A stretch of DNA of 64,000 nt, taken from Escherichia coli. GTDB lineage: Bacteria; Pseudomonadota; Gammaproteobacteria; Enterobacterales; Enterobacteriaceae. Position numbers: made by a program. Location: assembly GCF_009931435.1 (NCBI RefSeq), contig NZ_CP043414.1. One strand, 5' to 3'. Of the stretch, positions 9,001 to 15,000 are shown piece after piece. Numbering within the stretch: position 1 is the stretch's first letter; each line of letters begins with the position of its first letter.

Positions 9001-12000
9001 ACGTTTTTGGGTCAACCAGACGTTGCCAGCTGTAGACAAAATCCTGTGCCGTTACCGGTGTGCCATCCGCCCATTTTGCGTTATCGCGCAGGGTGAAAGT
9101 CCAGATACGGTTGTCATTACTTTTCCACTGAGTCGCAACGCCGGGGACAATCTCCCCTTTCTCGTTCTGATTCACCAGTCCTTCAAAAAGATCGCGAATG
9201 ACCTGAATCTCTGGCAGACCCACGGCTTTAGCGGGATCCAGCGACGCAGGCTCATCTTTAATATGGCGCACCAGCTCCTGCTTCTCTGCCAGTACTGTGC
9301 CGCTCGGAACTTCTGCAGCATACGAAAGAGAAATGCTGCTGACCAACAGCGCACAACACGTGACTGAAACAGAGTGCTTCATAAGTTACCCTCAAACCTG
9401 CGTTAATAATCATGCGTAATTATTTGTTTCGCCTTAAAGAAATGCAAACAACTTCCGGCAAAAAAGTGATACAAGATCGATAACATAGCGTTGAAGAAAA
9501 GGATTTGATAATCCGCAAAATTTGCACAACACTGCCTGTAATACTTCCTGAACCAGAGACGATCATGACCGTAACTCGCCCACGCGCCGAACGCGGCGCA
9601 TTTCCGCCCGGTACAGAACATTACGGACGTTCATTATTGGGCGCGCCTTTGATCTGGTTTCCGGCCCCAGCCGCCAGTCACGAAAGTGGTTTGATTCTGG
9701 CTGGCACCCACGGTGATGAAAACTCTTCGGTCGTGACCCTCTCCTGTGCTTTGCGGACATTGACACCTTCTTTGCGCCGCCATCATGTGGTGCTGTGTGT
9801 GAATCCTGACGGCTGCCAGTTAGGGTTACGGGCCAATGCTAATGGCGTGGATTTAAATAGAAACTTTCCGGCAGCAAACTGGAAGGAAGGTGAAACGGTT
9901 TATCGCTGGAACAGCGCCGCTGAAGAACGTGATGTCGTTTTACTGACAGGTGACAAACCTGGCTCCGAACCTGAAACTCAGGCGCTGTGCCAGCTTATAC
10001 ATCGCATTCAACCTGCCTGGGTGGTCTCATTCCACGATCCACTGGCCTGTATTGAAGACCCCAGACACAGCGAATTAGGTGAATGGCTGGCCCAGGCGTT
10101 TGAATTGCCACTGGTCACCAGCGTCGGTTATGAAACGCCTGGCTCTTTCGGCAGTTGGTGTGCGGATCTCAACCTGCATTGCATCACCGCAGAGTTTCCG
10201 CCCATCTCCTCCGACGAAGCCAGCGAAAAATACCTCTTTGCGATGGCTAACTTGCTGCGCTGGCATCCTAAAGATGCAATGCGCCCGTCGTGAATTGAAG
10301 CGCCGGTTCCACATCTACCGCCAGCCAGGTCGGTCCGTCAAGATCAGCAAAACTGACCTGCGGCACCAGCGGTAAAGCGGCGCTAATGGCACGAGAGGTA
10401 CACAACATGCAGCCCAGCATCAGACTGAAACCTTGTGCACGCGCTTCGGTCGCCAGCGCCAGCGCCTCCGTCAGGCCACCCGTTTTATCGAGCTTGATGT
10501 TAACCATCTCATAGCGCCCTTGCAGCGCCTTCAGATTGCTACGGGTATGACAACTTTCATCAGCACAAATCGGTAACGGATGAATAAAATTCTCCAGTGC
10601 CGCATCGTCCTGCGCAGGAAGCGGTTGTTCAAGCATCGCAACGCCTAAATCCGCGAGCAGTTGGCAACGCGCCGCCAACCCTTCTGCACGCCAGGATTCA
10701 TTTGCATCAACGATAAGCGTCGCGTCGGGCACAGCCGTGCGAATTGCTACCATCCGCTCACTGATAAGATGGTTATCCAGCTTCACTTTCAGCAATTTCG
10801 CGCCTGCCTGCCACAGTGTTGATGCACTATTGGCCATCTGATCAGGCGTACCGATGACTACCGTCTGGGCAGTGGTGACTGTCTCGGGAAGCGTTATGCC
10901 GATCAAATCAGCCAGCGATTGCTGCTGTTTTCGCGCCGCCAGATCCCACAATGCACAATCCAGCGCATTACGTGCTGCGCCGGCAGGGAGAATTTTTTGC
11001 AACTCCTCCCGTGTCAGCCCTTTCTCTAATTGCGGCACGACGCTCATAATTTGCGCCATTACCGAGGCATCACTTTCTCCATAACGCGGATACGGCGTGC
11101 ATTCACCGGTGCCTTTAATACCTTCTTCTTCCAGTTCAACCACCACCACGCGCGCTTCACTACGACTTCCCCGAGCAATCACAAACGGGGTATGTAAGGG
11201 CCAGGCTTCCTCAAATACCTTAACGGTTCTCATCTTTACTCCTTGTTGTCGCGGTGGTCTGCGGATTAAGCGCAAATAGCGTTTGCTGTGTTATTGACAG
11301 TTAGCATAAACTAGGTGTGACGTTAACTATATGTAAACAGGAAAGATAATCATGTCACAAACCGTTCATTTCCAGGGCAACCCGGTTACAGTCGCCAATT
11401 CCATCCCGCAGGCGGGTAGCAAAGCGCAGACTTTTACTCTCGTGGCAAAAGATCTGTCTGACGTCACCCTCGGTCAGTTTGCGGGTAAACGCAAAGTGCT
11501 GAACATTTTCCCGAGTATTGATACCGGTGTTTGCGCCGCATCAGTACGTAAGTTTAACCAACTGGCAACCGAGATCGACAACACCGTTGTGCTGTGTATC
11601 TCTGCCGATCTTCCGTTCGCCCAGTCTCGTTTCTGCGGCGCAGAAGGTCTGAACAACGTTATCACCCTCTCCACTTTCCGTAACGCTGAATTCCTGCAAG
11701 CCTACGGTGTGGCAATTGCTGATGGCCCACTGAAAGGTCTGGCAGCGCGTGCCGTTGTGGTTATTGATGAAAATGACAATGTGATTTTCAGCCAGCTGGT
11801 GGATGAAATCACCACCGAGCCGGATTACGAAGCAGCTCTGGCTGTACTGCGCTAAACAACTGTGCCGTTCACTGAATCACCACCGGTGAACGGCAGTTTT
11901 TGATCTACCAGTCCCACTATTTTCCAGAGTTCCTGCCACTATTCCCCCTAACCGTTGTGCATTAAGATTGCTCTTTGCCATTATTAGCCCAGCGGAGTGA

Positions 12001-15000
12001 TGACTATTATGGATGATAAACAAATTACGGTCTGGCTTAAACACAATTGCTGTTCAACGGACATTCCTGCCATTGCCGAGGCACTAACGAACCATGCAGA
12101 ATGGCTTTTAGAGCTAGCGCCAGATCCTATTGATCAAGGTAGTTCATGCTTACCGCCGGCAGCTGCAGCTGGTATTTTTCTTGGCGCAGCGGCGATGGTT
12201 CACTGCGGCGAGGCCAGTGGTGCAGAAACCTGGCTCGAAGCAGCCATTACTGATTACCATTTCTTTAATCCAAACGGATATAGTTCATGGAGAGGCAGTA
12301 CGCCTGTTTTTACAGCAATATCGCGTTACCCGGCATTAAAAATGGTGTTATTTAACGCCGCTTGCGCAATGGAAGACTGGAATAAAGCATCCGCTGTTCT
12401 TGAATCGCTTTTCAATGCCAGCGATGTCCCGAAAGATAACCCTGTCGCCCCCAATTTTACCCCTTATGCGCTGAAAGATATTATCGCGGATAACCTCCCG
12501 TTAGGGCCTGCTTATTATGATGAAACCTGGTTGCTGGCAAAACAAGCGTGGTTAATTAATGCGGGCGTTCTGGATGAGCGAACATGCAATACCTGGAAGC
12601 AATATACCCGCCATTTGCGCCATTTGATCCACAATGCACAGTTTTCCGATGCGATCTCTTTTGTACGCAGTAAAAAAGAACCATTAAATCATATCCATAC
12701 CTACTCAGACTTTTATCTCTATGCGATTGGTTTATTTTCTTCTACTGATCAGCTAAGTGAAGCGCTAACCTGGGTAAAACAATTAATCCGCAACAATGAT
12801 GGTCATTTCCATGATCTTTTCGTTTCAACTGGCGCAAAGCGCCGCATAAAGCCTGAACTTAGTACCTTGCTGAATAATCTCTTGCACAGCGCAGAGTTTC
12901 AGGCGTTGCAGGATAAATATCTCACCGTCGGACATGATGTTGTGCATTCTGGTCCCTTCATGTCACTTTATGAAAAGGTTCTTGGCGGTAAGTCCCGAAA
13001 GCGCTGCGCGATTAGTCGAAAATTAATCTCGCCCGGCGAAGCGGTTTATGAATATCGTCAGCTGGATAGTGTGGAATATATTGCAGCGAAAGCGGCCTTT
13101 CAGACATCTGAGCTAAATAATATCGCCCACCGGCATCATAATGATAGTTATCAGTGGCATGAATTTGCCGCCCAATGGCCTCGTCGGGGTTCACTTTCTC
13201 ACCCAGATATTGCCCGTTATTTGTTTGAGCGCCAGGAAGGAAAATGCTTTGATGCCGCAGAGTTTATACCACTGATTGCGGAACCGTTTGTCTTTCCGAT
13301 GCGTTTCATATGGGTTGCCGGGTTGTCCTTTGAATTACATCAGTATCCGGATGCCTATTTCGTAAATGACAATATGGCGGGTGAATTTGTTAATCTCTGC
13401 TGGATGGCTATGAAATGCGGACATGCTGGCGACATTTTCAAACAACTGGCCCACGAGCCGCATGACGTTGCTGACCCTATTTACGCCATGCTCGCCACGT
13501 TTGACCGCTCTGATTGCCGTAGCGCCGCCGCCGCGCACTTTGGACAACCGGAACTACCGGAAATAATGGCACTGGCTTTCAGTTCGAGGTTATCGCTCGA
13601 CAGCGTACTTACCATCGCTGAGTTTGGTAAAAATCAGCCGCGATTTTCACATGCGCTAGCAACGGCCCTCCTGCGTTACAACCTGCACATCTACTCAAAC
13701 TATATGCCGCAGGTTAACTGGTACCTTCAGGGGCTGGAACACTATGCTTTGGCAAAAGGCGGTCAACTTTTAAATTTCTTTGTGCATATTCCAGAACAAA
13801 TTCCCGTTCTGGCGACCATGCTGGAACATGGCGTATTAGTGCGTGGGATCGGTGAAGGTGCCTATGATGGTTATGATAATTCAGCAAATTCATTTCATCA
13901 TGCCGCCGTGATGCACTGCCTTGAGCACGCGCCGGAAAAAGTCCGCTACTGGATGGAAACACCCTGGATTCAGAACTATTTAGTGAATGCGCCGCTGCGT
14001 CAAACGGCGCGCCATGTGGAAGCCTGGCATAAAAAGTTTGGCATCAAATGAACGTTGCCGCTGCGCCTGAACGGCGCAGCCAGCACAATCACTCTTCGCT
14101 TTTCTTCTGGTTTAAGCCATATTCCCGCAACTTATTGGCAATCGCGGTATGCGAAACGCCGAGACGTTTTGCCAGTTTGCGCGTGCTGGGATAATTGCGA
14201 TAAAGCTGAGTTAATACCGAGCGTTCAAAACGGCTGGTAATTTCGTCCAGCGAACCTTCCATCGCATCTTCGCCCACGGCTACCGTTGCGGCGTCATAAT
14301 CCGGCAACAAAATATCCTGAGGACGCAGCTCATAGCCGTCCAGTTGTGTCAGTGCGCGATAGATAGCGTTCTTTAACTGCCGCACATTTCCCGGCCACGC
14401 ATAACGCGTAAGTACAGTATTCAGGTCAGCGGCCAGTTTCGGACGCGGCACGCCCTGCTCGTCGGCAAAGCGAGCGACGAACAGCTCAGTTAACGGCATG
14501 ATGTCCTGCGGACAGTCACGTAACGGCGGTAGATTGAGCGTCAACACGTTCAGACGATAATAGAGATCTTCACGGAAAACGCCTTTTTGCACCAGTTCGA
14601 CTAAATTCTTCTGCGTAGCGCAAATCACCCTTACATCGACATGCACTTCATGATCTTCACCAACTCGACGGAAAGTGCCATCATTAAGGAAACGCAGTAA
14701 TTTCGCCTGCATCCTTGGCGACATCTCGCCTATCTCATCTAACAGCACCGAACCACCGTTCGCCTGCTCAAAGAACCCTTTTTTACCTTCCGGAGCATGA
14801 CCAAACAGTTCACTCTCGACCGCATCTTCCGGTATAGACGCGCAGTTCAGCGCCAGGTAAGGTTTGCCCGCTCGTGGGCTTGCCTGATGGCAGGCGTAGG
14901 CAAAGAGATCTTTACCTGTACCGGTGTCACCCGTAATCAGCAACGGCGCGCTTAGCATCGCCAGTTTCTGCGCCTGTTCGACAACATGCTTCATTTTCGG

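Follow-up and report, generated by a model that had tools for sequence, protein, structure and literature searches.

A rare accessory gene between tpx and tyrR of Escherichia coli: weakly atypical composition and a possible role in interbacterial immunity

Introduction

In Salmonella, the yegQ locus has been published as a putative orphan-immunity islet (SAIDI-1) related to type VI secretion systems (T6SS) or contact-dependent inhibition (CDI) (PMC7400221), and TsiV proteins (DUF3396) have been experimentally validated as immunity proteins to TseV nucleases, which are PAAR-VRR-Nuc effectors (PMC9635880). Here, we describe a gene that shares several features with these systems and that is located between the core genes tpx and tyrR, at positions 12009-14051 (+ strand) of a 64,000-nucleotide stretch of Escherichia coli DNA (contig NZ_CP043414.1 of assembly GCF_009931435.1), which is called the window throughout this text. 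The protein encoded by this accessory gene is exactly identical to WP_161399904.1, which is annotated as a "hypothetical protein" in the protein collection, and a literature search by accession found no papers.

The likeness to the Salmonella islet is first one of place, since the yegQ locus is also where a Salmonella homologue of the accessory gene sits, in the company of TsiV and other small orphan genes. It is also one of behaviour: as for orphan immunity islets, the spread of the family is sporadic and strain-variable, no cognate toxin is found in the carrier, decay is frequent and family members occur in arrays together with validated immunity families. Unlike SAIDI-1, the gene stands alone in E. 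coli and does not form an islet, the family copy has a GC content of 47-49% when the surrounding Salmonella islet genes are at 34-36%, and the accessory protein is not named in PMC7400221. As for TsiV, the family is co-located with it in two independent contexts (Salmonella and the locus L027), both proteins are cytoplasmic (as judged from sequence for the accessory protein) and both occur as tandem divergent paralogues, while they share no sequence similarity (no PF11876 match) and differ in size and predicted fold.

Results and discussion

A stand-alone gene at a site that is nearly empty in K-12

The original prediction had reported an open reading frame (ORF) of 684 amino acids (aa) at a site that would be empty in K-12. 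The site is indeed empty in this strain, where no more than a 43-bp spacer separates tpx from tyrR: the alignment of the window with K-12 ends at 11849 and picks up again at 14091, and the short spacer is also found in strain SCU-485. The reading frame, which is in the ORF list, stood as well, but its start did not: it is the ATG at 12009, giving 680 aa plus the stop codon, and not the GTG at 11997, as backed by the RefSeq annotation in carrier strains and by the full-length alignment with Salmonella and metagenome homologues. The accessory protein aligns over its full length with eight homologue clusters, at 49-90% identity and without any frame break. Among five E. coli alleles, the dN/dS ratio (non-synonymous over synonymous divergence) is 0.24-0.42, compared to 0.01-0.08 for tyrR, which indicates that the accessory gene is under purifying selection, although far more relaxed than that acting on tyrR. 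Positions 12009-14051 hold an intact, stand-alone accessory gene that looks expressed.

Homologues recurrently lie beside known immunity genes

The gene neighbourhoods of homologues were compared in a sample of 15 contexts, and in five of these a homologue was found to be encoded in an effector-immunity array, beside recognised toxin-immunity families (TsiV, Tli4_C, SUKH_6, or SMI1/KNR4 with DUF1963). The Salmonella yegQ locus is one of them, and its TsiV (PF11876) gene is surrounded by AT-rich orphan genes and by a remnant of IS1. A second one (L027) is an ordered array made of a Tox-PAAR-like gene, a TsiV gene, an orphan toxin module, a second TsiV gene, a second orphan toxin module and a third TsiV gene, with the family member starting 2 nt after this last TsiV. 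The three others hold Tli4_C, ankyrin genes and three paralogous orphans (L020), SUKH_6/SMI1_KNR4 and DKNYY (L026), and two SMI1/KNR4 and two DUF1963 genes on a Sinorhizobium conjugative plasmid. Two further contexts display DKNYY or Sel1 neighbours. These immunity families are rare in genomes generally, and the recurrence of homologues beside them would be best accounted for if the family were itself of the immunity type and persisted in orphan form.

Two of these neighbourhoods deserve a closer description. In the Salmonella yegQ islet (L003, 271-13000), the genes surrounding the homologue have a GC content of 34-36%, compared to 49% for the homologue, so that its origin differs from that of its AT-rich neighbours. 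On an enterobacterial metagenome contig (L007, 3305-5415), two genes of 358 and 344 aa located upstream of the homologue P0008 correspond to the two halves, N- and C-terminal, of a second paralogue that is split. Since this paralogue adjoins P0008, the family does occur as tandem divergent copies, an organisation that is typical of immunity arrays.

Based on these neighbourhoods, our preferred reading, which we hold tentatively and at somewhat less than even confidence, is that the accessory gene encodes an orphan immunity protein that works by binding an interbacterial toxin. The accessory gene, with its own flanking hairpins, takes the place of the 43-bp tpx-tyrR spacer of K-12, and its product is predicted to bring together a variable protein-binding repeat module (TPR-like or ankyrin) and a conserved core made of a beta-hairpin and helices. 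In this scenario, the product would bind and neutralise an incoming interbacterial toxin, either delivered by a T6SS or polymorphic. That toxin would not be encoded by the carrier strain, by analogy with "acquired interbacterial defence" genes. A wider version of this proposal, which is possible but doubtful in our eyes, is that the gene founds a family not described before, whose large (~680 aa) cytoplasmic members would serve in immunity or defence. With a swappable TPR/ankyrin module and a core of novel structure that bears the conserved basic beta-hairpin, the protein would shield rare lineages of E. coli and Salmonella from a T6SS or polymorphic toxin of the nuclease type, itself not encoded by these lineages, and the gene would persist as an ancient presence/absence polymorphism at tpx-tyrR. 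If the accessory protein is an immunity protein, it would represent a new large class among the acquired interbacterial defence genes of gut Enterobacteriaceae, and the gene could serve as a marker for past exposure to a toxin that is as yet unidentified.

Several observations weigh against an immunity function. With 680 aa, the accessory protein is much larger than typical immunity proteins, and no toxin partner was identified for it. In the contexts examined, no family member was found right after a recognisable toxin gene of its own, the preceding genes being TsiV, DKNYY or genes without a Pfam match, and in about half of these contexts, the E. coli one among them, the family member stands alone, inserted between housekeeping genes. 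The recurrence beside immunity genes was itself judged from raw counts over the 15 sampled contexts. No kinship to validated immunity families was detected in Pfam, NCBIfam or the PDB, and hhalign comparisons with the neighbouring SUKH_6, SMI1/KNR4, DUF1963 and DUF4034 families gave probabilities below 2%. Finally, a promoter scan found no consensus sigma-70 promoter in the region upstream of the gene (11856-12008). Separately, an all-against-all BLAST of the neighbouring proteins revealed no common upstream partner across contexts.

The same arrays could also point to a role of the accessory protein as T6SS cargo effector, adaptor or chaperone instead of one in immunity: homologues are found in T6SS-related arrays, and TPR-type adaptors exist. 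We consider this very unlikely, since no PAAR, VgrG, Rhs, MIX or adaptor domain is found in the protein, no downstream partner gene is present in E. coli, the 64-kb window contains no T6SS gene and the family member occupies the distal, immunity-side position in the PAAR/TsiV array.

A swappable repeat module on a conserved core

An AlphaFold2 model of the accessory protein, built from a 58-sequence alignment, has a mean predicted local distance difference test score (pLDDT) of 89.8 and a predicted template modelling score (pTM) of 0.91. In this model, an N-terminal half made of TPR/PPR-like helical repeats (residues 1-305; 12009-12923) is followed by a small beta-sheet element (residues 317-360; 12957-13088), as defined from the secondary structure of the model, and then by a C-terminal helical domain (residues 361-680; 13089-14048), which is the conserved core of the family. 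Only about half of the family has residues 1 to ~180, and in two members ankyrin repeats take their place. The beta-sheet element bears the most conserved motif, which is basic (LGGKxRKRCAISRKLISPGxxVYxYR), with K328, C333, G343 and R350 conserved among the 58 members. The conserved positions of the family are otherwise mostly structural ones (glycines, prolines and aromatic residues), together with D415, R504 and H560, and no catalytic motif could be recognised among the conserved positions of these 58 members.

Searches in Pfam, NCBIfam, PADLOC and PHROG gave no match for the accessory protein, its Pfam TPR score being below threshold (E = 0.13), and the same libraries matched the 58 family members only through ankyrin repeats fused at the N-terminus and through TPR/PPR hits that stayed below threshold. 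Sequence profile searches against the PDB matched only the N-terminal repeats and not the C-terminal core, and Foldseek found nothing with E <= 0.001 in PDB or BFVD. Two PDB profile matches were set aside: the one with RidL/interaptin is insignificant (E = 0.1), and the one with a designed PPR protein (E = 5e-12), which could have been taken as evidence for RNA binding, is the sum of ~10 weak repeat matches with individual E values of 0.1-80. In comparison with TPR, Sel1 or ankyrin scaffolds, the accessory protein thus differs in that it stays under the Pfam TPR thresholds and in that the conserved part of the family is a non-repeat C-terminal core without any match. This is an unannotated family without a Pfam model, with a confident predicted structure whose conserved half has no detected relative. 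The protein is predicted to be cytoplasmic, as its sequence shows neither a signal peptide nor a membrane helix. Because a swappable TPR-like or ankyrin N-terminus is attached to a conserved core that lacks conserved catalytic residues, this architecture suggests a binder rather than an enzyme.

Such an architecture could also be that of a single-gene anti-phage defence system, in which a repeat-domain sensor (TPR or ankyrin) would be coupled to a novel effector core and found alone in variable spots of the chromosome. The swappable N-terminal repeats would suit such a sensor, as would a sporadic and strain-variable occurrence at many different insertion sites, frequent loss or disruption, and the presence of one relative near a type I restriction subunit. 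This hypothesis nevertheless appears unlikely to us: the accessory protein has no match in the PADLOC defence catalogue (0 families at E <= 1), its core bears no nuclease, NTPase, TIR or similar signature, no homologue is found in phages, and the recognisable neighbours of the family are toxin-immunity families and not defence systems.

A rare and old polymorphism that decays in some strains

The accessory gene is present in 32 out of 5426 complete E. coli genomes (<1%), always at tpx-tyrR, so that presence or absence of the gene is polymorphic at a conserved site. The E. coli alleles fall into three classes that are 94-96% identical, with synonymous divergence (dS) values of 0.07-0.15, compared to dS values of up to 0.19 for tyrR, and the divergence of the ORF follows that of its flanks when the window is compared with other carriers. 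The exception is the pair formed by GF4-3 and 2013C-4974, which have K-12-like flanks in common (tyrR dS of 0.03) and yet ORF alleles with a dS of 0.13. Since the dS values of the alleles are comparable to those of the deepest flank haplotypes, the gene is not a recent import, and since the ORF alleles of GF4-3 and 2013C-4974 diverge despite their K-12-like flanks, it is an old Escherichia polymorphism that recombination has reshuffled.

The accessory gene is found within a ~25-kb tract of the window (7000-31500, from mppA to ycjM) whose identity to K-12 and to SCU-485, a non-carrier, is only 90-96%, compared to 97-99% elsewhere in the window. From tyrR to ycjX, only one of 5415 E. coli genomes is at least 99% identical to the window, and the whole tract looks like a deep and rare haplotype or an introgressed segment.

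The gene was disrupted at least three times independently (two different splits and one IS600 insertion), and about one third of the listed carriers have copies that are split or interrupted by IS600. A small minority of strains has thus retained the gene, with signs of decay in part of these carriers. The IS600 copy lies inside the accessory gene in several genomes of Shiga toxin-producing E. coli (L032, E. coli 2013C-4830, 1596-2752, and also H28-H30), and two of these interrupted genomes keep only the 3' 59% of the gene.

This decay raises the question of whether the gene could be a functionless relic, an old insertion on its way to being lost, without any role in present-day E. coli. The proportion of disrupted copies, dN/dS values that are 10 to 20 times that of tyrR, a low codon adaptation index (CAI) and the missing consensus promoter all fit with this view. 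We still find it improbable, as the dN/dS values of the accessory gene remain well under 1 over dS values of up to 0.15, the 680-codon frame is intact in most carriers and across homologues that are only 49-58% identical, and the upstream region and hairpins of the gene are conserved.

Outside E. coli, the family is very small: it forms eight clusters at 90% identity among 5.8 billion proteins, and a full HMMER scan gave 119 family representatives at 50% identity, while a second, word-indexed protein search found no further relatives. A scan with close alignment detected the family in two of ~100,000 species-representative genomes, and dedicated searches found one member on a plasmid and none in phages. 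Its members are sporadic across Proteobacteria, a planctomycete and low-GC bacteria. In enterobacteria, homologues are located at other chromosomal sites: in the yegQ islet of Salmonella, downstream of hrpA, between malM and ubiC or next to ydcZ. Judging from this pattern, the accessory gene has been horizontally mobile over evolutionary time.

The base composition of the gene is only weakly atypical

The original prediction had taken low-GC patches inside the ORF as a sign of foreign origin, on the basis of four 60-nt stretches counted by hand. A recount gave 36.7, 51.7, 48.3 and 31.7% GC, in agreement with these counts. The patchiness seen in them is, however, at chance level: the standard deviation (SD) of 60-nt GC windows across the ORF is 0.073, compared to a binomial expectation of 0.064, codon shuffling gave P = 0.37 for an SD at least as large and P = 0.25 for a minimum at least as low, and the neighbouring core genes ycjX, ycjM and ynaI display the same spread. 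The 60-nt GC patches of the accessory gene are sampling noise, and counts made by hand at that length cannot separate foreign from native DNA, because their sampling SD is ~6.5 GC points.

When the ORF is considered as a whole, its GC content is 47.3%, compared to 51.3% for the window, which places it at the 10th percentile of equal-sized windows. Using the 49 long ORFs of the window as a reference (mean ± SD), the accessory gene has a GC content of 0.472 against 0.521 ± 0.034 (z = -1.5), a GC content at third codon positions (GC3) of 0.453 against 0.565 ± 0.066 (z = -1.7) and a CAI of 0.261 against 0.320 ± 0.075 (z = -0.8). The mean deficit is thus real but modest, and it stays inside the range of core genes, of which ynaI (GC/GC3 of 0.424/0.451), ycjW (0.459/0.453) and ycjM (0.448/0.446) are equally low or lower, and neither GC, GC3 nor codon usage is clearly outside the range of these window ORFs. 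The tetranucleotide distance of the ORF from the window is unremarkable, as 21% of equal-sized windows are as deviant, and Karlin's dinucleotide delta* of the ORF lies in the 7% tail. Altogether, the composition of the accessory gene is weakly atypical.

Since core genes are as low and since tetranucleotide usage is ordinary, composition alone does not prove a foreign origin: what holds of the original proposal is that the gene is accessory and not part of the core, and this is known from its distribution and not from its composition. Nor is a lower-GC donor indicated, because family members follow the GC content of their hosts, from 26% to 70%, and because enterobacterial copies are at 45-52%. 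Silencing by H-NS is not suggested by composition either: at 47.3% GC, the accessory gene is not markedly AT-rich relative to the genome, and its lowest 300-bp stretch is at 41% GC, a value that 3.8% of all 300-bp stretches of the window, mostly in core genes, reach as well. The mildly low GC content would rather be an ordinary property of an accessory gene that is predicted to be weakly expressed and, as a GC anomaly, the finding is an ordinary one.

We therefore regard as quite unlikely that the gene was recently acquired from a donor of lower GC content, is betrayed by AT-rich patches and is probably silenced by H-NS. GC and GC3 values that are 4 and ~11 points under the window means, the dinucleotide signal and the rarity of the gene in E. 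coli do go in that direction, and as in classical xenogeneic, H-NS-bound islands, the gene fills a K-12-empty site and has a GC content under that of its neighbours. Against this stand the chance-level patches, the equally low ynaI, ycjW and ycjM genes, the ordinary tetranucleotide usage, the host-like GC of other family members and the dS values of the alleles, which contradict a recent arrival. Compared to classical genomic islands, the GC deficit is also small and in the core range, residence in the species has been long, and the borders of the insert carry no integrase, transposase or other mobility gene, tRNA or direct repeat according to the ORF list and a repeat scan. The accessory gene thus bears no mark of a mobile-element-borne island, the IS600 copy found in some strains being a secondary insertion inside the gene.

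Features bordering the accessory gene

On its left side, the accessory gene is preceded by tpx (11352-11855, + strand), which encodes a thiol peroxidase and is 99.0% identical to tpx of K-12, although its end differs (...VLR* in the window and ...VLKA* in K-12). A stem-loop at 11863-11895 (+ strand; inverted repeat I19, with 10-nt perfect arms) is followed by a UUUUU run and has a predicted fold of -20.6 kcal/mol (z = -4.5); it is probably the terminator of tpx and it forms the left edge of the DNA that is absent from K-12. The non-coding region upstream of the accessory gene (11856-12008, + strand), which includes a GGAG at 11994-11997, is 95-100% conserved among carrier strains.

On the right side, a GC-rich hairpin detected by RNA folding (14060-14079) stands between the convergent stop codons of the accessory gene and of tyrR and forms the right edge of the K-12-absent DNA. 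It folds at -19.7 kcal/mol on the + strand (z = -3.1) and at -26.0 kcal/mol on the - strand (z = -4.7), and it is possibly a bidirectional terminator. It is followed by tyrR (14089-15630, - strand), which is 95.8% identical to its K-12 counterpart. The 43-bp spacer of K-12 holds a different hairpin that is found nowhere in the whole window.

Between the hairpins on either side of the gene there is a 12-nt inverted match (11860-11871 and 14068-14079; CTGTGCCGTTCA / TGAACGGCGCAG), placed right at both ends of the DNA that K-12 lacks. We did not read it as a terminal inverted repeat, as it is comparable to 23 other chance-level pairs from the same scan.

Other differences from K-12 in the window

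The window also differs from K-12 at other places. In the spacer between ynaI and ynaJ (6571-6574), the IS5 copy of K-12 (insH4) is absent. Between mppA and mpaA (9383-9564), the K-12 genes ymjC, ymjD, ycjY and pgrR (~3 kb) are absent, so that mppA directly adjoins mpaA, as it does in 2017-02-2CC, WL297 and GF4-3, while the carrier strain 2013C-4974 has pgrR together with hydrolase and short-chain dehydrogenase/reductase genes at this place. Lastly, a ~7.9-kb island at 50349-58243 is absent from K-12, while 2043 of the 5426 complete E. coli genomes have it, in most cases with an identity of at least 99%; it encodes a major facilitator superfamily transporter, an outer-membrane efflux protein, an AcrB-family resistance-nodulation-division pump, a membrane-fusion protein and a TetR regulator.

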